Origin: Nanobdellota archaeon
GTDB taxonomy: Archaea > Nanobdellota > Nanobdellia > Pacearchaeales > GW2011-AR1
Reading direction: 5' to 3'
DNA length: 64,000 nt
Assembly (NCBI GenBank): GCA_038044745.1
Contig: JBBSZK010000002.1
Location: forward strand, 35,790-99,789
The notes below the pieces were generated by a model that was given only the letters and a program-made list of their open reading frames with translations, searched no databases and was not told the DNA's origin. A program made the translations under genes and the position numbers. Numbering within the stretch: the stretch's first letter is position 1; every line of letters starts with the position of its first letter. Below are positions 4,821 to 56,682 of this stretch, in pieces.

Positions 4821-5189
4821 TTATTGCGAAGCAAGATAATACGTACGGAGACTGTCAAAGTATTTCTTTCCGAATTCAAGTGCACATCTCGTGTTATCAT
4901 CGTTAGGATTTTGTGCCAAACAAGTTTCAAGCTGCATAATCGTACGAGAAACATCGGAACCATCTTCAATCAGAAACCGCCGACGCTCCCCTAATTCAGG
5001 ATGTTCCTCAATTAAACGTAGATAGACATGAGCGTCCTGTGTTTGTGGACCAAATACATCAAGAATAGAGCCTGCCCCGCGAACGTAGTTCATAAAGCGA
5101 CTAGAAAAAGAACGAGACGTTCGAGGAGTAAACACACGACGAGTATAGTTATCAACAACTTGTTCAAAAGAAGGAAGCGAGGGAGTCAT
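4821..5189 (-). CDS. hypothetical protein
   Basis: 122-aa ORF, no recognisable motif. AT-rich ~275 nt spacer downstream. Confidence 0.35.
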
Positions 5190-5465
5190 TAGAAATAGGA
5201 GAAAAATGAGTTTATTAATATTTTGATAAAATATCGAAAGGATTTGTTCTTGCAGAACAAGTACATAGAAACTTTTAAGAAAATTTGCAAGAGTTTGGAG
5301 AAAAGATATTCAAGATTTTTTAAACCATTGGCTTCGATGAAAATCATGTGCATTTCATGCTTCAAGCTGTGCCCAAATATTCTCCTTTCCTTCGCAACTA
5401 TTTCGAATCGTTAAGAGCCTTACAGCAATGAAACTCTTTGAAAAGCATCCGAATTTGAAAAAAAG

Positions 5466-6347
5466 TTAATAAAACAATCCGTAAATCTTGTGAGCAAAAC
5501 CCATTACCTTAACCTGCAACGAACGACCTGTGAACGTTACATCTCCTTTTTTAAAAGAAGTCGCGAACTCTTGAGTAACCCTCTCCGTCGTCCCTGCACT
5601 AGAAAGGCGTTCTGCAGCTTTCTTCTTAACACGAATCGTATTCTCAACAATCGAACCATCATCTTCAGAAACCGAAAGTACCTCATGATTTACTTTAACA
5701 ATGCGCGAGTTCTCCTCACCTTCGACTATAACTCGCGTTCTAGCTCCATCGAAATTGTCACGAGGGAAAAAAGGAATCGATCCCGTATTAAATCGAGTTC
5801 CATGTAAAATATCAACAATGCTAAAGCCAGGTATGCGAATGATAGGCGTTTCAGGCTCGCTTTCGACCGGCAAACACGCGCCCGCCTTCTGCCATTCGTC
5901 GCGAATATACTCAATTTCAGCAGCAACCTCTTCAGGGGTCATGCCTTCTGCAACCATGAGAGAAATCCACGTCGCAATAAATGATTCAAAAACAGAACTT
6001 TCGAAATGAGTAAAGGGCGTACAAACGGTACCCTCGGGACATTTCACCGTAACACGTTTAACATGACCATCAACACACGTAGCTTCTTCGATATATTCAT
6101 AGGCAGGATAAACACAACCATCCCAATTGAAAAGCCAACCATCCGCACGTTGAGACACATCATCCCATTGAATAACAAGGCCCGCATCATACACGTCTTC
6201 GCCTGCATCAGTATCGACACATCCCCCGCTCTCCGTCAAGGGTTCAACATCAGCACCAACAAGAACACCTTCATCTTTGTCATTAAGAGCGACAACAAAC
6301 GAAGAAAAAGCTAAAAGAAAAACAACCGAAAAAGCCACCACTTTCAT
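5466..6347 (-). CDS. secreted hypothetical protein (signal peptide, Cys-containing)
   Basis: N-terminus MKVVAFSVVFLLAFSSFVVALN is a signal-peptide-like hydrophobic segment. No catalytic motif recognised. Confidence 0.5.
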   Translation of the reverse strand: MKVVAFSVVFLLAFSSFVVALNDKDEGVLVGADVEPLTESGGCVDTDAGEDVYDAGLVIQWDDVSQRADGWLFNWDGCVYPAYEYIEEATCVDGHVKRVTVKCPEGTVCTPFTHFESSVFESFIATWISLMVAEGMTPEEVAAEIEYIRDEWQKAGACLPVESEPETPIIRIPGFSIVDILHGTRFNTGSIPFFPRDNFDGARTRVIVEGEENSRIVKVNHEVLSVSEDDGSIVENTIRVKKKAAERLSSAGTTERVTQEFATSFKKGDVTFTGRSLQVKVMGFAHKIYGLFY

Positions 6348-27989: not shown

Positions 27990-28113
27990 GAGCCTATAGC
28001 TCAGCCCGGTTTAGAGCACCGCTCTTATAAGATACGCGCTCGTGAGGGCGCCATTTTCATCGAAAAAATTCGAAGAAAGGCGGGGGTCCCCGGTTCAAAT
28101 CCGGGTAGGCTCA
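27990..28113 (+). tRNA. tRNA-Ile (anticodon UAU) with ~48-nt intron (28030..28077) at the canonical 37/38 position
   Basis: Hand fold: acceptor GAGCCUA/UAGGCUC, D stem GCUC/GAGC, anticodon stem CCGCU/GGCGG, loop CUUAUAA, variable loop GGGUC, T arm CCCGG-UUCAAAU-CCGGG, discriminator A. No encoded CCA. Confidence 0.65.
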
Positions 28114-34079: not shown

Positions 34080-36266
34080 CTAAAACTCTAAGAACTTCCA
34101 GTCTTTACCTAAATTCGCTTCATTAAATTCGTACTTTTTACTATCATTGTAACGCCAACTGCCGTCCTTTGATACAGCTATTCCGCCCCATAATTTCTTG
34201 CCCTTTTTATTCTCTCTTTCAATGTAATGTGCTAAAGCCTCGGCCTTAGGTTTTGCGTCTTCGGCAGTCCTACCGGACTTCGTATCAAACAGCCCAACAC
34301 TTCCGTCTTTCATATAAACGATAAAGTCGACATAAAATGCCCTTTCAATACCATTTTCATCACTATACTTTACGGCAAACCATTTTATTTCGCTTTCTCC
34401 ATTTTTGAACCACCAAATCACCTTATTGCCTGCCTTTTCTAAAAGCTCGATGAATTCTTTTTCTGGTTTGCTACCTTCTTTTGCATATACGGGAACCATT
34501 ATGCTCTTCTTATAAGGCATTTTGACATATCTACTATTATGTTCGATCATTTCAGGAACCTCCCAAATGACAGGAACTTCTTCTCTCTGTTCTGCCAAAT
34601 TTTTGATAATTTTCTCAGTATATTCTTCTTTGGCCTTGTTGACTAAATCAAACAAGATTTGCCTATTTGCCTCACTTAATACTAACTTTTGTACATCGTC
34701 CCAATCTTCAACATCAACGACTTTTTCGAATAACTTGTATAACGCAGTCCTCATTACACCGCTCGAGTCTGCCGGGGCGAATGGAGTACATAGTTCTCGA
34801 AGAAGTAAATCAAAGCGATATTGTAGCTCTTTGGGAGTAAGATTGACCTTGATTCCTTCTTTATCTGACTTTACTATCTGCGCCTCATCTAGCTTAACGA
34901 TTTTACCATCGACCATTATACTCGCGATTAACTTGCCCCGATCTCTACTTATTTTTCTACCAAAATTTTGCTTTTTCCCTTCTTCTACTAATATTTTTGA
35001 AAATTCTCCCGAGAGCCTAGTCTTCTCTCTCTGTCTTTTCAAATAGATAGAATTTAGCTGAAGATTCTTATATATTACGTCATTTCTTTTTGATTCATAG
35101 ACAGTTAAGTAATCTTTGGCGATATCCTCAGCAATTTCTATGTTTGAAAGATTTGTATATACATATCCTCTGTTTAGCTTATCATTTTCATAATGTTTAA
35201 GTTCTGGCATTCGCATGATTCTTCCAACTGTCTGGATAGAGAAAACAAGGCTTTGCCATTCTCTAAACAACACCAGAATTTGAGCCCTTGGACAGTCCCA
35301 GCCTAGTGAAATAGCGTGCTTGAAGATAAGAACCTCAACATCGCTTTCATTTTTCTCTATATTTGCTAGATTAGGAGTCTTGTCTTCAGAAAGCCATCTC
35401 GCTAACTTGCCATTTTCTTCAGTTATCTTAAACTTATCTCGAAGTATTTGCTCTATATCGTCTTTCCTATCTATGACTCCAGTTTTTTTGTCAGGAAGTT
35501 GAATAAGGACTAAAGGGTTAATTTTTACCCCTTCTTTTGCGTAGGCCTTTAGAATTTCTTCGCGTTTCTTAAGTGCACACTCTAAAACTAGCTCGTCTGC
35601 ACTTTTCTTTATCTTTTCCTTATCAATTTCAGGATTTATTGAAACCTCTTTTTTGATCATTCCCTCCTCAATAACTTTTGCGAAATCAACCTCCACCATA
35701 TGACCCTCCAATTTTGGAGGTGTTGCAGTTACCTCGATAGCAACTTTGGGTGCGATCTCAGCAACAATTTCTTTCGATTTTTCACTCTTCGCAGTATGAT
35801 GGCTTTCATCAATTACAAGTATTATCTCTTGACCATCTTCTTTTGTATTTGCAATTACTGTGGAAAGGTTGTTGTCTTGTTCATTATCGCGAACATAGAG
35901 GTTTTCTTTTTTGTTGATACTTTCCCAATTGAAAAATAGAACTTCGTTCTCCCCTATTCTCTTATCTTCTAAATCTTCAAAGTCTGAGCATTTAATAATC
36001 CTAGAATCTTCAAAAAAACGGTCTAATTTTTCCTTGCTTTGTGTATGCAACTGACGAACCGAAATCCAGATAAAAGATAGGCGTTTGTTGTCAATTCTGT
36101 CAGTAACGAGTCTCTTTAACGCTTCAGCCATCATAATTGTCTTTCCGCTTCCTGTTGGAGCCTTGAAAACACAGACTTTGTTCTCCGAGAAATCAAGTAA
36201 TCGGTTCACGGTATCTCTTAATTCAGAAACCGCATCTTCTTGATAACCCTTTAATTCAATTATCAT
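34080..36266 (-). CDS. res: type III restriction enzyme, Res subunit (SF2 helicase + C-terminal nuclease domain)
   Basis: Walker A KAPTGSGKT, DEAH box VIDESHH, helicase motif VI QTVGRIMR. C-terminal FYVDFIVYMKDGSVGLFDTKSG is a PD-ExK-like nuclease block. 4-nt overlap with mod. Confidence 0.85.
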   Translation of the reverse strand: MIIELKGYQEDAVSELRDTVNRLLDFSENKVCVFKAPTGSGKTIMMAEALKRLVTDRIDNKRLSFIWISVRQLHTQSKEKLDRFFEDSRIIKCSDFEDLEDKRIGENEVLFFNWESINKKENLYVRDNEQDNNLSTVIANTKEDGQEIILVIDESHHTAKSEKSKEIVAEIAPKVAIEVTATPPKLEGHMVEVDFAKVIEEGMIKKEVSINPEIDKEKIKKSADELVLECALKKREEILKAYAKEGVKINPLVLIQLPDKKTGVIDRKDDIEQILRDKFKITEENGKLARWLSEDKTPNLANIEKNESDVEVLIFKHAISLGWDCPRAQILVLFREWQSLVFSIQTVGRIMRMPELKHYENDKLNRGYVYTNLSNIEIAEDIAKDYLTVYESKRNDVIYKNLQLNSIYLKRQREKTRLSGEFSKILVEEGKKQNFGRKISRDRGKLIASIMVDGKIVKLDEAQIVKSDKEGIKVNLTPKELQYRFDLLLRELCTPFAPADSSGVMRTALYKLFEKVVDVEDWDDVQKLVLSEANRQILFDLVNKAKEEYTEKIIKNLAEQREEVPVIWEVPEMIEHNSRYVKMPYKKSIMVPVYAKEGSKPEKEFIELLEKAGNKVIWWFKNGESEIKWFAVKYSDENGIERAFYVDFIVYMKDGSVGLFDTKSGRTAEDAKPKAEALAHYIERENKKGKKLWGGIAVSKDGSWRYNDSKKYEFNEANLGKDWKFLEF

Positions 36267-38008
36267 TTGAATATTCTCCTATACACATGAAGTATAACCT
36301 CAGGTATTGGGCACAATTTTGCTTTATTCTTAAGCTCTTTGAATTCCTTTTCGGGAACCTTCCCGTCTAATGAAAAGACGTAAACATGGATTTTTTTATC
36401 AAGCTTTTTAGCTTCCTTAACAAAGTCCTCAATAGAATCTTCATCAAACACAATACCCAAATAATAATTATGGTTCTTGAATATCTTCCATTCCCTCTTA
36501 CCCTTGACCGGAATGAATGCGTTTTCTTTAATGCAAATCATCTCTGTAGACTTATCCACAATTTTCTTTTTGTTTTTATCGGTAGGCGCTGAATCGACAA
36601 AGTCTGTCTTAAAGTATTTGAGATTTCCTCCGAGCCCTTCAACTCCCTCTTGACCTGAACTTTTGTACCCTTTGATGACTTTATTAATACGAGGGTAACA
36701 AACCTCTGTGCAGATATTATTTTCATTATTTGTGCATAAAATAAACCTTCGGCTTCCTCCGTCTTCCTTGTTTAAATCAAGGACTGCGTGGCCTGTTGTT
36801 CCAGAACCTGCAAAAAAGTCTAAAACTAAACCATTTTTTGTTGAACAATATCTTATCAGATCTTTAATCAAATAATGGGACTTGGGGCTATCGAATTTTT
36901 TCATCCCATCAAATAACTCTCTTAGAACAGTCGTAGCCGTGTCAGTTGAGTAATCACTATCAATAAGAAAAGATTTCATCTTCAATTTCTTCTCTTCGCC
37001 ATTTTTAAAAAGATAATCTTTCTGGAAAACATCCCATTCATTCCTACCAGAAACTATCTTAGCAACTAGTTCGATTGAACGAACAGTTACAGCCTTCTTT
37101 TCCCATCGCCAACAACCTTCATTACCATTCGACAACTTTGGAGTCACTTCGATATTATGAGTTTTTGTTTTTTCAACAGAAACAGTTTTTCCAACAGGGT
37201 CAATGTAAATTGGATAGAACAAATTCGGTCTATCTTTTCTTCGACTATTGGACCCCCTCTTTCTTAATCCTTGTAACCTATATTTGCCATTTTGGTCTTC
37301 TAAATTATATTCATCCAGAGACTCTGGAGTCATAGGAAGGCCATTTATCTCTGCCGAGGCAGTCTTTCTGTAAAAAAGAAGATATTCATGGGCTGTTGCA
37401 ACATACTTTTTATCGCTTCTTCCCGCAAGATTATTTACTAAACACACATTGGATATAAAGTTATTTCCACCAAAAATCTCGTCACATAAAATTCTCAGCT
37501 GAGCTTGTTCATTGTCATCGATAGAAATGACTATTAGGCCCCCATCTTTTAGAAGTTCTCTGGCAAGTTTAATTCTCTTTTCCATAAACGAGAGCCATTT
37601 ACTATGTCTATAAGCATCTTCTAAATCAACATATTGGTCATTGTATTTGAAATCTTTATTTCCAGTATTATATGGTGGATCGATATAAATAACATCAATT
37701 GATTTGTTATGAGTAAAGTTAAGGGCAGCTAAAGAATGATAGTTATCCCCTTCAATCAGTAAATTAAAATCTTTTTCTTTATCAGTTATAATCTCTTTAT
37801 CACTAACTTCTTTTAATACGGGCAGTTTGTGTTCCGTTCCAGGAAACTTCTCCTCTGTCTTTTGGCCATCCCAATTTATGTAGTAATCAAAAGCCTCTTT
37901 CGTTTTATCTTTTTCCCACACAAGCCCATAAGTCTTTTGTTTTCTTAATGCTTCAACCTCCTTGATTAAATCATCTTTAGACCAGCCAGACAAATCCCTT
38001 TTCACCAT
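36263..38008 (-). CDS. mod: type III R-M Mod subunit (beta-class N6-adenine DNA methyltransferase)
   Basis: Motif IV VIYIDPPYNTG precedes motif I VLDFFAGSGTTGHA, the beta-class order. 581 aa. Confidence 0.85.
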   Translation of the reverse strand: MVKRDLSGWSKDDLIKEVEALRKQKTYGLVWEKDKTKEAFDYYINWDGQKTEEKFPGTEHKLPVLKEVSDKEIITDKEKDFNLLIEGDNYHSLAALNFTHNKSIDVIYIDPPYNTGNKDFKYNDQYVDLEDAYRHSKWLSFMEKRIKLARELLKDGGLIVISIDDNEQAQLRILCDEIFGGNNFISNVCLVNNLAGRSDKKYVATAHEYLLFYRKTASAEINGLPMTPESLDEYNLEDQNGKYRLQGLRKRGSNSRRKDRPNLFYPIYIDPVGKTVSVEKTKTHNIEVTPKLSNGNEGCWRWEKKAVTVRSIELVAKIVSGRNEWDVFQKDYLFKNGEEKKLKMKSFLIDSDYSTDTATTVLRELFDGMKKFDSPKSHYLIKDLIRYCSTKNGLVLDFFAGSGTTGHAVLDLNKEDGGSRRFILCTNNENNICTEVCYPRINKVIKGYKSSGQEGVEGLGGNLKYFKTDFVDSAPTDKNKKKIVDKSTEMICIKENAFIPVKGKREWKIFKNHNYYLGIVFDEDSIEDFVKEAKKLDKKIHVYVFSLDGKVPEKEFKELKNKAKLCPIPEVILHVYRRIFK

Positions 38009-41927: not shown

Positions 41928-43358
41928 ATGGGTGATAAGGCATTATTTATCTTATCTCTAGTTTTTTTTGCGGTCTTATTATCTTCTTTGCATTTTTCAT
42001 CAGCTATTGAAATTGAATACAACCTTACTTACGATGCAAACGGTAACCTCATACAAGGTTTCGATAAGTATTTTGAATATGACGGTTTAAACAGATTGAC
42101 TGAAGTAAGAGAAAGCGATGAGAATGGAGTTCTTCTAGAACAATATTTTTATGATTCAGTTGGAAATCGTATCAAAAAAATAACCTATAATGGCGCGCAA
42201 AACGAAACTACTTACTATATTGATAAAAATTTTGTTCAAGTTGTAAACAGTTCAGGCACCTTTAACTATACTTACTATTATGCTGACGGCCTACTATTAG
42301 CTGCTAAAGACCCTTCTGGAAAAAAGCAATTCTATCATCCAGATCATCTAGGAAGTACGAACCTTATAACCAATGAATCAGGACAAATAATAGAGAACAC
42401 AATTTACTCTCCTTACGGAGAAGTAACTGACGAGGGACAAGAAAGCCGTTATCTTTTTACAGGCAAGGAGTTTGACCGCAGTACCGATTTATATTATTAT
42501 GGCGCTCGATATTATGATCCTATTACTAATCATTTTATCCAACCAGATTCTCAGATTCAAGACGTATACAATCCGCAAGACCTAAATCGATATTCTTATG
42601 CTCGTAATAACCCGTATAGATATACCGACCCTTCTGGAAATGCGGTTAATCTTGTTACAGGAGCCATTGGAGCTACTATAGGTGGTGGAGCTTCATTTAT
42701 CATCTCAGTTATATCTCAGTATTCTTCAACAGGACAAGTCAATTGGGCTGACGCAGGCAAAGATACTGCTGCAGGTTTAGTTGCAGGAGGAGTAAGCGGT
42801 CTAACATTTGGTGCTGGTGCTGTTTTGTTGGGGGGAGAGCTATCTTCTGGTTCGATAATGATTCTTATGGGTGCCTCGGGATCCCTTGGATCAGGGGTAG
42901 GACAAATAACATCGAACTTACTTTATGATAGAGCGATTACAGATAATGTACCGCAAGCCGCTATTGCAGGCGGAGCTTTATCAGTAGCAACTGCAGGAGC
43001 AGTTAAAGGTGGGTCTTCTATACTTAAATCACTAAATATAAATTCAGGATTTAATAAATTAAATTTTGCTAGTAAAGAAGCTCTTATTAAACATTTTGAG
43101 TCGCATGGAAACGATTTTGGTTTTACTTCATCCAATCAATATTTAAAAGCAAGTCAGAATTTCTTGGCTGGAAAAGCAGGAAAAGGGGTTTTGGAATATA
43201 CTCGACCAATCGGTGATGTTGTAAGATATAATCCTCAAACAAATGAGTTTGGAGTTAAAACTGCTCAAGGGACTATAAGAACTTACTTTAAACCTACGGA
43301 AGGAGCAAGATACTATGCAAGCGATAAAGCCAATTACTTACCGGAGGTAGATGAATGA
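41928..43358 (+). CDS. secreted RHS/YD-repeat protein with RHS repeat-associated core and C-terminal polymorphic toxin domain (type unassigned)
   Basis: Signal peptide MGDKALFILSLVFFAVLLSSLHFSSA. YD repeats (YFYDSVGNRIKKITYNG). RHS core hallmark YYGARYYDPITNHFIQPD ... NPYRYTDPSGN. C-terminus has Gly-zipper GAIGATIGGGASFIISVIS and a ~150-aa unique tail. Confidence 0.75.
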   Translation: MGDKALFILSLVFFAVLLSSLHFSSAIEIEYNLTYDANGNLIQGFDKYFEYDGLNRLTEVRESDENGVLLEQYFYDSVGNRIKKITYNGAQNETTYYIDKNFVQVVNSSGTFNYTYYYADGLLLAAKDPSGKKQFYHPDHLGSTNLITNESGQIIENTIYSPYGEVTDEGQESRYLFTGKEFDRSTDLYYYGARYYDPITNHFIQPDSQIQDVYNPQDLNRYSYARNNPYRYTDPSGNAVNLVTGAIGATIGGGASFIISVISQYSSTGQVNWADAGKDTAAGLVAGGVSGLTFGAGAVLLGGELSSGSIMILMGASGSLGSGVGQITSNLLYDRAITDNVPQAAIAGGALSVATAGAVKGGSSILKSLNINSGFNKLNFASKEALIKHFESHGNDFGFTSSNQYLKASQNFLAGKAGKGVLEYTRPIGDVVRYNPQTNEFGVKTAQGTIRTYFKPTEGARYYASDKANYLPEVDE

Positions 43359-43786
43359 GCAGTAGAAGAAAAGAAACAATTAAACATGATGAAAGCCCTG
43401 TAAGAAAAATAGTACAAGACTCTAAAAGAGAAAAGTATAACAAATTTTTAAGCTTAAAGGCCGCCCTACATTATAAAGATGCTTATCTCGTTATGGAAGG
43501 AGATTGTGGAGGACAGATTTATTTAACTGTTCCAGTAAAATTTGTAAAATGTAATGAAAAAACCCTTAGAAGTCTTTTGAATGAAATAGATTCTTTGGCT
43601 TGGAAAGACCCAGAATGCGCAGGTTTTTATTTTGAAAGAAGACCTAAAGGAGAGATTCTTATAGGCGGTATGGGGGGAGGAAAGATTCAAGACGATCTAT
43701 GGGTGCATAAAGAACTTGAATATCTCAAGGAAAAAATAAGATTAATTTTGAAAGGAAAGGTTAACGCAGATGATTTGATAAAATGA
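43355..43786 (+). CDS. putative cognate immunity protein of the RHS toxin
   Basis: 143-aa ORF whose start overlaps the toxin stop (ATGA). This is the canonical position for polymorphic-toxin immunity genes. No known motif. Confidence 0.45.
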   Translation: MSSRRKETIKHDESPVRKIVQDSKREKYNKFLSLKAALHYKDAYLVMEGDCGGQIYLTVPVKFVKCNEKTLRSLLNEIDSLAWKDPECAGFYFERRPKGEILIGGMGGGKIQDDLWVHKELEYLKEKIRLILKGKVNADDLIK

Positions 43787-46700
43787 GAAGAAAATCTAAA
43801 ATTGTAATAACCTTGGTCTTTTTTATTTGTCTTGTAATTATTGCCATGTCATCGGTAAAGGCAATAGGCCCTTTACCAATCTATCTACAAGACCCTATTG
43901 TTCCTGATTCTCCCTTATCACTTCAAAGCAGGTCAGAGACAGACGTATACACAGGAGCATTTACTCAGAATTTCCCTATTCAATTACCTCTAGGTACCAA
44001 TGGGTTAAAACCCTCTTTATCTTTATATTATAATAGTCATATGTTTGATTCTCCAAGACAGAGTTTGATAGGTAATGGTTGGGATGTACAGTTAAATTAT
44101 ATAGAAAGAAGAACTAATTACACTGCTTCTAATATTTCGGACGATTACTACGTTATTGTTTTTAACGGAATCAAAGAAGAGAATTTAATTTACGACCCAG
44201 TTCAAAGATCGTATGAGACAAAAATAAGGAACTTTTTTTATATTTCTAATTTAAGTGGAGGACAAGGCACGGGAGGTTTATATTGGACAGTAAAAACTGG
44301 GGACGGATCTATATATAGATTCGGTTATTGGAATAATTCTTTATTGAAGGCTGGACTTTATAACTATACATCACGATGGTATCTTGATTTAGTTAATGAC
44401 ACCTATGGAAACCAAATTTTTTACAATTATAGCATTAACCCTTATGCAAATGATAGTTCTGCAGTTTATCCACTTTCAATAGAATATAATAACGATAGAC
44501 AGAGAAAAATAGAATTTGTTCTAACTTCAGTAGATAGAATCGATAAGAAGACTCAATATATAGAAGGTAGTTTTATCAGATTAAGTCGAGCAATAAAAGA
44601 AGTTAGGATTTTAGCTAATGGTTCTCTTGTCAGAAAGTATGATTTGGGATACAACGGTACAGATTATCGAAATCTTTTAATAAATTTAACTGAATTTGGT
44701 TCAAATAACTCTCTTTCATTAAGCCCAATATCTTTTAATTATTCATCATCTTCTAAGAATTTTACCAACATAAATTCTCAGTGGTCTATTCCTTCGGGGG
44801 TATTCTTTCATATAGGTTGGACTAATGGGGGGAGTGATACGGGTGTTCGCTTGGCCGATATCAATAGAGACGGCAAGGTAGATTTATTAAAGGCCTATTG
44901 TAATTCTAACACCTATTCGTGCTATCAAAATCCAAATCAAATAGATAGAGCAGTGTGGTTGAATAATGGAAGCGGGTGGACAAGCTCAAATCTTCAATTG
45001 CCACCTATTCCTTTTGGTGTTAGCTATAATTGGGACAGCGGAGCAAGAATTATAGATATAAACGGAGATGGTTTTACAGACATAGTACAAACTTGGATAG
45101 ATGATCAGGATCCGAATAAAGTTATAAGAGAAACGTGGTTAAATAATGGTACGGCTTTCATAAATAATACTAACTGGAGTATTGAATCCGACATTTTCTT
45201 TCACATGGGATGGGTTGATGGAGGGAGTGATACTGGAATAAGAATTGCAGATTTAAACGGAGACTCGTTACCTGACCTAGCAAAAAGTTATTGTAACAAC
45301 CCGCCGTGGTTATGTTCAAATCCTGAAAGAAAGGTATGGATTAATACTGGAAAGGGTTGGAGAAATGACTCTGGAATTTCCTTACCGCCGGTCACTTTCA
45401 GAGTTAGTAATCACGCAGAACCTGGCACATTCATAAATGATTTAAATGGAGATGGACTAGCAGATGTTGTTCAATATTGGAGGCAAGATGATTTCTCTTC
45501 GGATCAACCAACACAATTAAGTGTGTGGTTAAATAATGGAAGCGGATTTAACAATTTTACCTCTAATTGGAGCATGCCTTCAGAAGCATTCTACGTAGGA
45601 TATACTAATGGAGGTATGGATAACGGTGTTCGTTTAATAGACATAAATGGAGACAATCTTATTGATGTCATCCAAGCGAGATGTTACTCTAATACTCGAG
45701 GGTGTTATGATTCACCAGGGCTTATTCAAAAAAATGTTTGGTTAAATAATGGAAAAGGGTGGGTTCTAGACCAAAACTGGAGTCTGCCTGATCCAATTGC
45801 CTTAATTAACAATTATAACTGGGATCCTGGTACAAGAATGGCAGATATCAACGGGGATGGGATTACCGATTTTATACAGCTATGGCAGGACGGGTCTGAT
45901 GAAATTAAAGATATTTGGATAAATAATGGTCAAAAAGGATATATTCTTCAGTCAGTTAAAAATCAATTTGGAGGTATTACTCGCGCCTCGTACAAACAGT
46001 CAACTCTTCTAAATAATACAGGCGTAGACACTTTAAATGATATTGGTTTCAATTTGTGGGTAGTTGAAAATATAAGCAAGGACAATGGATTAAACACTTC
46101 GCATAAGGTTATACAGGTTGCTCGATATAATTATGTGGGAGCATTATACGAATATCCTACAAAAGAATACAGAGGGTTTGCATATAGTCGTGAGAATTTA
46201 AGTGAAGGAATAATCAAAGAACATTATTTTCTACAAGAAGAAGGCAACAGAGGTCAAGAATATCTCATTAAATTAAGTAACAAAAGCGGTTCGTTGTACA
46301 CAACCATTTATAGAGATTGGAAATTATCTTTTAGCAATGGTTTATATAAGCTAGAATTAAAAAACATAACTGAACTAGTTTATGATGGTTTGGCAATTAA
46401 CCCTCGTCCACGCCTTACTGTTTTTAATTATGATCAATTTGGGAATATAATAGTAAAACAACTATTGGGAGATCCTCAAAACTTAGAAGATGATACATAT
46501 GAATATTTTGAATATGCTACAAATAATAGTACATGGATAATCAATAAAGTTAAAAATTATACTTTGTACGGGAGCGATAACCAAACCAAGTTTAGACAAA
46601 CGCTTTATTATTATGATAATTTAGTATATGGTGGCTCTCCAACTAAAGGAAGTATCACGAAGAAAGAGGAATGGTTAAGCGGAGGAACAAATCCTTTAAC

Positions 46701-56355: not shown

Positions 56356-56682
56356 TTAGCCAGTTACAAACTGCACAACTAATGGCGCTGCCCATATTAT
56401 GACCAAACCTATGAGAACATACATTATCATCGCCTTGGCTCCTTCTCTTTTTCCTGGATCGCTTCCAGACATAATGTAGTTAGCTCCCGCCAAAAGCAAG
56501 ATTAGAACTGCAATGAAAGTAGCTGCATATTTGATAAGATTGTAAATCTTCATCACAGGCTCTAAAATTTGGTCAAAAGTCTCTTTGTCTTCATCGCTTA
56601 TAGTATCATTAAATTGTGCGGATACCAAAGGAATAAAGGACAATCCTATAAACAAAAGGACAGCAAAAGTTTGAGCTTTCAT
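56356..56682 (-). CDS. small pilin-like membrane protein (signal peptide + hydrophobic hairpin), VirB2/TrbC-like candidate
   Basis: MKAQTFAVLLFIGLSFIPLVSAQ, then two hydrophobic segments (ATFIAVLILLLAGANYIMSG, AMIMYVLIGLVIIWAAPLV). 108 aa. Confidence 0.4.
   Translation of the reverse strand: MKAQTFAVLLFIGLSFIPLVSAQFNDTISDEDKETFDQILEPVMKIYNLIKYAATFIAVLILLLAGANYIMSGSDPGKREGAKAMIMYVLIGLVIIWAAPLVVQFVTG

Follow-up and report, generated by a model that had tools for sequence, protein, structure and literature searches.

The subject of this analysis is a window of 64,000 nucleotides from a Nanobdellota archaeon (GCA_038044745.1, contig JBBSZK010000002.1, positions 35,790 to 99,789 of the forward strand). 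Within the window, a small rearrangement hotspot (RHS) gene encoding a protein of 476 residues overlaps a downstream gene encoding a protein of 143 residues. The C-terminal tail of the 476-residue protein is a known kind of toxin, belonging to the colicin D-like branch of the barnase-EndoU-colicin E5/D-RelE (BECR) ribonucleases (RNases); the structure of a close relative, 8EY4, has been solved. In this DPANN (Nanoarchaeota) archaeon the two genes probably make up a polymorphic toxin-immunity module, operating by the mechanism proposed below. Coordinates are collected in Table 1.

In the proposed mechanism the 476-residue protein, referred to here as mini-RHS, would be exported via the Sec pathway. 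Its Rhs core, ending in DPSGN, is of the type that autocleaves, and such a cleavage would free the C-terminal tip. The first part of the tip, a Gly/Ala/Ser-rich hydrophobic segment of ~135 residues, probably aids the tip in entering or crossing the target membrane. The second part would be a metal-independent RNase of ~95 residues, of the family of colicin D and the CdiA-CT of O32:H37. This RNase is expected to cut RNA involved in translation, most likely a tRNA within its anticodon loop, with the helix-borne H389 and H393 acting alongside D396, R426, D430 and T452. In the producer and its kin, the coupled 143-residue cytoplasmic protein would most likely bind and block the RNase.

The tail was matched to 8EY4 by sequence, by profile and by structure. 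A phmmer search of PDB sequences with the tail returned 8ey4_A (E 8.5e-13, 37% identity). A 32-sequence profile returned the same chain at E 7.6e-24, together with the colicin D tRNase (1v74, 1tfo, 1tfk, 5znm) at E 0.012-0.17. The AlphaFold2 (AF2) model of the tail, computed from the 32-sequence alignment, has a predicted local distance difference test score (pLDDT) of 92.8 and contains helices H14-28 and H33-44, a four-stranded meander and a C-terminal helix, as expected of a BECR fold. Foldseek placed this model on 8ey4_A with E 1.7e-8, a template modelling (TM) score of 0.86 (normalised to the target) and a root-mean-square deviation of 1.3 Å over 83 columns. Beyond this chain, the only PDB entries returned were those of colicin D (5znm, 1tfo and 1v74; probability 1.0, E 3.5e-4 to 1.1e-3). 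A preliminary description of the locus, made from the sequence alone, had presented a tail of ~150 residues that could not be matched to any known toxin family and might be part of a new toxin-immunity pair. Remote-homology searches instead gave 8EY4 and colicin D, and the folded domain in the model comprises ~95 residues (~379-472).

Residues at the catalytic positions of colicin D are conserved in the tail. In the profile alignment, K388-H389-F-E-S392-H393-G-N-D396 lies opposite K607-K608-Y-(gap)-K610-H611-A-G-D614 of colicin D. H393 falls on the catalytic H611 and D396 on D614; therefore, the catalytic histidine and the essential aspartate are kept. T452 probably falls on S677. The position of colicin D K608 is occupied by a family-invariant histidine (H389), giving an HxxxH pair. 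Zhang et al. (2012) describe K607, K608, H611, D614 and S677 as essential and Hxx[ED] and [TS]xxK as the motifs of Tox-ColicinD (PMC3482391); H393-G-N-D396 fits the first motif and T452-Y-F-K455 the second. Residues H389, Y405, G429 and P456 are invariant in both alignments of the tail family (A2 and A3), whereas F380, H393, R426, D430 and T452 are fully invariant only in A2, with near-invariance in A3. Every family-invariant residue is retained by the copy in the window. H389, H393, D396, R426, D430, T452 and K455 are the candidate catalytic residues of the domain.

8EY4 is the contact-dependent growth inhibition (CDI) toxin-immunity complex of the CdiA-CT of E. coli O32:H37, annotated as a PT-VENN domain-containing protein, and its toxin belongs to the same domain family as the tail. 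The HxxxH helix motif, an R..GD motif and a T.[FY]KP strand are common to both. In E. coli, a proteobacterium, a type V CdiA filament delivers the domain, whereas the domain described here is carried on a mini-RHS with a predicted Sec signal in an archaeon. Colicin D, solved with its immunity protein ImmD (1V74, 1TFO, 5ZNM), shares the BECR fold and the catalytic-position residues with the tail. Unlike colicin D, the tail is not accompanied by an ImmD or Imm64-like immunity protein, and the cleavage of tRNA-Arg belongs to colicin D. No RNA target of 8EY4 was described in the literature searched, in which no paper citing 8EY4 or the O32:H37 CdiA-CT was found. By comparison of sequences, the tail is inferred to be a metal-independent RNase, and a tRNA anticodon loop is the best guess as to its target.

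Some observations weigh against so close an analogy with colicin D. The Pfam family Colicin_D (PF11429) has no match to the tail at E <= 10, and colicin D itself is a remote relative, with ~21% identity to the tail. SRLase1, an unrelated BECR-like toxin, cuts 23S rRNA, and targets other than tRNA are thus possible for BECR-type toxins. Searches of Pfam and NCBIfam with the tail gave no match, which is why it had been called unassigned. Colicin_D was the sole Pfam family matched by more than one tail, and weakly so (two of 32 relatives, best E 0.049). These weak matches indicate that the tail represents a distant sister branch of colicin D that lies outside the Pfam family. Membership in the SRLase1 family itself was considered and rejected: the conserved R70, D72, H85 and H97 of SRLase1 lie on the sheet, and SRLase1 has an additional strand, as opposed to the helix-borne HxxxH of the tail.

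The tail family is large. When 1.84 billion representatives were searched exhaustively with phmmer, 2,857 proteins were found at E <= 1e-3, counted as cluster representatives at 50% identity, and 367 at E <= 1e-10. In 148 of the best 150 homologues, the RNase domain forms the very C-terminal end of the protein. The longer homologues carry it on RHS, PT-HINT, PT-VENN/DUF637 (CdiA) and SpvB/TcdB/FG-GAP proteins. Tox-ColicinD has already been recorded on RHS, CdiA, MuF and TcdB/TcaC carriers and in some archaea (PMC3482391). A word-indexed protein search had returned nothing, whether the query was the tail by itself or included the Gly-rich region, an under-report corrected by the exhaustive search. 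The tail also matches positions 695-793 of the 794-position PHROG 15528 'portal protein' (E 2e-13). The location of this match at the C-terminus indicates that phage MuF/portal proteins carry the RNase as a C-terminal fusion as well. Viral contigs contained just three relatives of the domain.

The 143-residue protein is encoded where an immunity protein would be expected. The ATG of its open reading frame (ORF) overlaps the TGA of the toxin gene (ATGA, 43355-43358), and at its other end a second ATGA overlap joins it to the start of the following ORF (43783). Signal peptides are present in the 476-, 1,912- and 516-residue proteins of this run of genes; the 143-residue protein has none, and is without a transmembrane segment. 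A pattern scan of JGI metagenomes recovered 65 loci with relatives (57 non-redundant) from genomes of 28-75% G+C, correcting a word-indexed protein search that had under-reported the family with only two matches. Given these 65 loci and the 2,857 homologues of the tail, both ORFs are real genes. The family is marked by the motifs EGDWGGQIY, GGMGGG and W.H, in that order. In an alignment of 56 sequences (A6), G49, D50, G53, Q54 and Y56 are invariant, and W51, G52, I55, D79, W83, GGMGGG (104-109), W116 and H118 are nearly so. The copy in the window has a cysteine at the W51 position.

None of the searches assigned the 143-residue protein to a family or fold. The ORF and 56 relatives gave no match in Pfam, NCBIfam or PHROG, and viral contigs contained no relative. 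PDB searches by sequence and by profile returned chance-level matches only; the lack of a PDB sequence match also means that no relationship between the family and the CdiI chain of 8EY4 could be detected. The AF2 model, based on a three-sequence alignment, was poor (pLDDT 52.7) and had no Foldseek match at E <= 0.001, and no fold was drawn from it.

The pairing of the toxin domain with the 143-residue family recurs once. At locus L086 (390-1207), on a bacterial contig of 75% G+C, the same toxin domain, with 37% identity, forms the C-terminal end of a small lipoprotein (lipobox LLTAC). The lipoprotein gene is followed by that of a member of the 143-residue family, 38% identical, with the same ATGA overlap. 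L086 is the sole independent recurrence, and two such pairings in genomes so distant from each other are unlikely to be a coincidence. It seems likely that the 143-residue protein of the window acts as an immunity protein. The suggestion that the two genes may be a new toxin-immunity pair is thus partly supported as to the pairing, by the canonical position, the translational coupling and this recurrence, but not as to the newness of the toxin, the domain being known.

Several results argue against this role. The family was assessed in the informative loci, defined as the 45 non-redundant loci from metagenomes in which the sequence upstream of the domain extends over 400 nucleotides or more. 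The toxin domain stands beside a 143-residue relative in exactly one (L086); the other 44 have no such toxin or RHS gene nearby. In the toxin-free loci the neighbours are assorted housekeeping genes, with no enrichment of RHS or toxin genes. Conversely, among 25 genomic loci that carry the toxin domain, not one has a relative of the 143-residue protein. Near-invariant glycine-rich motifs that are maintained from 28 to 75% G+C would be less typical of an immunity protein, which evolves fast, than of an enzyme or a protein that binds a ligand. The copy in the window is also basic (pI 9.15), unlike typical RNase inhibitors. Conservation of the downstream ORF independently of RHS genes had been named beforehand as evidence against the pair, and this is largely what is seen, with the L086 pairing counting the other way. 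The family exists mostly apart from toxins, as orphan immunity genes or as proteins with another primary role.

The genes that do follow the toxin domain in the 25 loci encode mostly Cys_rich_CPCC-type proteins (PF14206, E 2.5e-33), as well as zinc-ribbon relatives and other families. Among such loci (L003, L004, L007-L009, L013, L026 and others), the toxin domain is followed by Cys_rich_CPCC in those of the Firmicutes type and by CPxCG zinc-ribbon proteins in those of the Acidobacteria type. The differences among these downstream genes indicate that the toxin family pairs with several non-homologous downstream families. The Cys_rich_CPCC and zinc-ribbon proteins occupy the same position after the toxin domain as the 143-residue ORF, to which they are unrelated in sequence.

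The strongest alternative, although a good deal less probable than an immunity function, is that the toxin assignment is right and the 143-residue ORF encodes no dedicated immunity protein. The protein would then be a member of a cytoplasmic family that is widespread and has a biochemical role of its own, for example one related to RNA or nucleotides, and would be merely co-transcribed or would protect indirectly, such as by shielding or repairing the RNA target. In accordance with this alternative, the toxin-free informative loci place the family among genes such as those for rpsB, chorismate synthase, H+-PPase and TruB, and G49, D50, G53, Q54 and Y56 are invariant, and GGMGGG nearly so, across the whole range of G+C content. 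At three loci (L044, 346-2497; L045, 1210-3361; L048, 269-2049) the relatives are fused to a C-terminal extension of ~120 residues and adjoin a gene for a Tpt1/KptA (PF01885) RNA 2'-phosphotransferase, in one gene order in L044 and L045 and another in L048. The Tpt1/KptA protein at these loci has 329 residues and a C-terminal extension of its own. The linkage to Tpt1 is a weak hint of an RNA-related role. On the other side, two remote genomes place the family right after the same toxin domain with a four-nucleotide ATGA overlap, orphan immunity genes are generally known to be common in other immunity families, and no enzymatic fold or family can be assigned to the 143-residue protein.

The mini-RHS gene encodes the core and the tip of an RHS toxin on a very short protein. 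A match to TIGR03696 (Rhs_assc_core) at residues 160-237 scores 72.1 bits against a cut-off of 32.5 (E 4e-20). YTDPSGN occupies residues 232-238, and DPSGN (residues 234-238, nucleotides 42627-42641) stands at the end of the core. DPSGN fits the terminal DPxGL-type autocleavage motif, with N in place of L, and the mini-RHS relatives have DPTGN (P0003) and DPDGF (AR15) as the cleavage-type motif. The preliminary description had read the protein as an RHS toxin tip that begins after a DPxGN-like motif, and the end of the TIGR03696 core at this point bears it out. The residue strings it quoted were located as well, the Gly-rich ones within residues 239-372 and that of the tail within residues 422-456. 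A sequence long enough for a shell was sought among the YD repeats and not found: they cover just ~130 residues (27-159) of the 476-residue protein, too few for a cocoon, which counts against the proposed mechanism; the full shell is found on the separate 1,912-residue protein.

The same RNase occurs on two other proteins of this kind, P0003 (442 residues) and a 446-residue protein of Archaeon GW2011_AR15 (CP010425.1). The recurrence of the architecture in AR15 and P0003 indicates that the mini-RHS of the window is no one-off fragment. At the AR15 locus (L005, 2999-5742), also from a DPANN genome, the mini-RHS has the same RNase tip behind another linker. It is followed by an unrelated gene of 156 residues and by an orphan RHS C-terminal cassette (5116-5742), whose tip likewise starts with a Gly/Ala-rich hydrophobic stretch. 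The locus in the window was also assembled from Hainich groundwater samples, and the mini-RHS ORF is intact in several samples. One assembly of the same locus (L002, 1-1360; ENA ERZ1292635, Hainich H43, coverage 2) differs by four G<->T differences in 1.36 kb, one of which changes toxin codon 423 from GAA to TAA and another K99 of the 143-residue protein to I. L002 was considered as a natural toxin-null variant and rejected; with a coverage of 2 and four differences all of the G<->T kind, the stop codon is probably a read error.

The 143-residue ORF is followed by genes for a 1,912-residue and a 516-residue protein, the first overlapping the start of the second by one base. The 1,912-residue protein bears the hallmarks of the toxin complex (Tc) protein TcB, namely an FG-GAP propeller (FG-GAP_3), TcdB_toxin_midN (64.4 bits) and an RHS shell made of many RHS repeats. 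Searches with Pfam and NCBIfam found neither an Rhs core nor a toxin tip in it. The mini-RHS module is like the TcB/TcC and classical Rhs toxins, with their autoproteolytic core and encapsulated tip, in its YD repeats, DPxG-type core and variable tip followed by a probable immunity gene. It is unlike them in that the core-bearing protein has only 476 residues and its own signal peptide and is encoded upstream of the shell protein. As far as domain composition can tell, the 476- and 1,912-residue proteins look like a TcB/TcC pair that has been split, in which the C component is unusually small and its gene comes first. No TcA, type VI secretion system (T6SS) or PAAR/VgrG partner was seen, with no test aimed at TcA. 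A more speculative proposal, rather improbable as it stands, is that the 143-residue family is a conserved cytoplasmic factor that protects or repairs RNA and was recruited as protection by the RNase systems of the DPANN archaeon and of the high-G+C bacterium, each on its own, and that, as a separate matter, the mini-RHS and the core-less shell protein form a split, Sec-exported cocoon of the TcB/TcC kind outside the archaeal cell.

It is improbable to a slightly greater degree that the mini-RHS is a displaced or orphan cassette with no deployment of its own, serving as a recombination reserve for the large RHS gene or left as a decaying remnant. The YD repeats span only ~130 residues, the adjoining 1,912-residue RHS protein is without core and tip, and orphan RHS C-terminal cassettes are present at the AR15 locus, all of which would be consistent with such an origin. 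However, a start codon, a signal peptide and a TATA-like element all belong to the gene itself, its architecture of ~450 residues is conserved in Archaeon GW2011_AR15 and P0003, its ORF is intact in several samples, and its DNA shares no homology with the large gene through which recombination could occur. Recombination between the two RHS genes was rejected on its own account: there is no DNA repeat, only the generic similarity of YD repeats.

The segment between the core and the RNase (residues 239-372) is rich in Gly (19%), Ala (15%) and Ser (13%), and just nine of its residues are charged. It contains four moderately hydrophobic stretches with a Kyte-Doolittle hydropathy (KD19) of 1.1-1.7. 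The preliminary description had proposed a glycine-zipper membrane segment. The Gly-rich, hydrophobic character is real, but the zipper periodicity is no higher than composition gives. Small-xxx-small motifs number 30, compared to 28.3 +/- 2.9 in shuffles of the same composition, and GxxxG motifs number six, compared to 4.6 +/- 1.8, a result that weighs against the proposed mechanism. The segment has no match in Pfam and no sequence homologue among the 150 best relatives of the toxin. A hydrophobic stretch within the 100 residues before the toxin domain is present in 42 of 128 homologues, some of these stretches being signal peptides of short proteins. In P0003 and AR15 the same RNase stands behind different linkers that are not Gly-rich. 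In Agrobacterium tumefaciens, a glycine-zipper N-terminus is required for translocation of the nuclease effector Tde1 (PMC10240207). By analogy, both systems would join a Gly-rich, membrane-active segment to a nuclease domain bound for the cytoplasm of the target. The GxxxG motif of Tde1, which is a T6SS DNase, is short and defined, whereas here 135 residues lie between the Rhs core and the RNase. A role of residues 239-372 in membrane insertion or translocation is plausible on this analogy. The least probable explanation, and one that can be given very little credence, is that this segment is itself the weapon, a membrane-depolarising pore former like Tse5-CT, EsxX and the CDI ionophores, and the target of the immunity protein: its four moderately hydrophobic, Gly/Ala-rich segments and the glycine-zipper pore-forming tips known from Rhs, LXG and CdiA carriers (PMC10684867, PMC12744356, PMC11630599) would agree with it, but the C-terminal RNase domain is intact with all its family-invariant residues, the 143-residue protein is without the transmembrane segment that is normal for immunity to pore formers, AR15 and P0003 have the same RNase behind non-Gly-rich linkers, and the zipper periodicity does not exceed that expected from composition.

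Table 1. Features of the mini-RHS locus, with coordinates in the window
Feature	Coordinates	Strand	Evidence or remarks
Candidate archaeal TATA box TTTATATAA	41898..41906	+	22-30 nucleotides 5' of the ATG; read from the sequence, function presumed
Mini-RHS polymorphic toxin gene, 476 residues	41928..43358	+	NCBI MEK6858361.1, 'RHS repeat-associated core domain-containing protein', Nanoarchaeota metagenome-assembled genome
Sec-type signal peptide MGDKALFILSLVFFAVLLSSLHFSSA	41928..42005	+	Hydrophobic N-terminus, KD19 peak 2.36; cleavage site predicted
Short YD/RHS repeat run, residues 27-159	42006..42404	+	PF05593 (25.6 bits), TIGR01643; PF25023 TEN_YD-shell on the record
Rhs-associated core, residues 160-237, ending in DPSGN	42405..42641	+	TIGR03696
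Gly/Ala/Ser-rich, moderately hydrophobic pre-toxin region, residues 239-372; putative membrane-insertion/translocation module	42642..43043	+	Composition, hydropathy
Colicin D-like (BECR fold) RNase toxin domain	43062..43355	+	phmmer/PDB, profile, AF2, Foldseek
143-residue cytoplasmic protein, family unannotated, probable immunity protein	43355..43786	+	NCBI MEK6858362.1, 'hypothetical protein' AABX53_00425
1,912-residue secreted TcB-like RHS shell protein	43783..49521	+	SpvB-like N-terminus, FG-GAP repeats, TcdB_toxin_midN, RHS repeats, LamG
516-residue secreted protein, last gene of the coupled chain	49521..51071	+	No Pfam match

Elsewhere in the window, a stretch of 124 nucleotides (27990-28113) matches the full 71-position Rfam tRNA model and was missed by ARAGORN. 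The stretch probably encodes an archaeal tRNA with an intron, in agreement with the assignment to Nanoarchaeota. On the reverse strand, helicase-like and DNA methyltransferase-like genes (34080-38008) look like a type III restriction-modification pair. A run of membrane-protein genes, also on the reverse strand (51456-56682), includes a 748-residue ATPase that appears to resemble the VirB4/TraC-type ATPases of conjugation and secretion.

Classical polymorphic toxin systems are reported to be rare in archaea, and most immunity superfamilies to be absent from them (PMC3482391). The toxin family, being structurally solved, and the standard polymorphic toxin module are already known, and the accepted view of how such systems work is unchanged. 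What is new is the DPANN host, the mini-RHS beside a core-less shell protein, and an undescribed, largely toxin-independent family at the immunity position. The analysis gives a fold and candidate catalytic residues to a large toxin family (2,857 representatives) that is unnamed by Pfam and NCBIfam, and the unannotated 143-residue family may add another type of immunity protein to those that act on RNases of the colicin D kind. Finally, a complete and apparently intact RHS-RNase module in a DPANN genome, with a relative in Archaeon GW2011_AR15, provides a concrete handle on competition or attack by tiny episymbionts.

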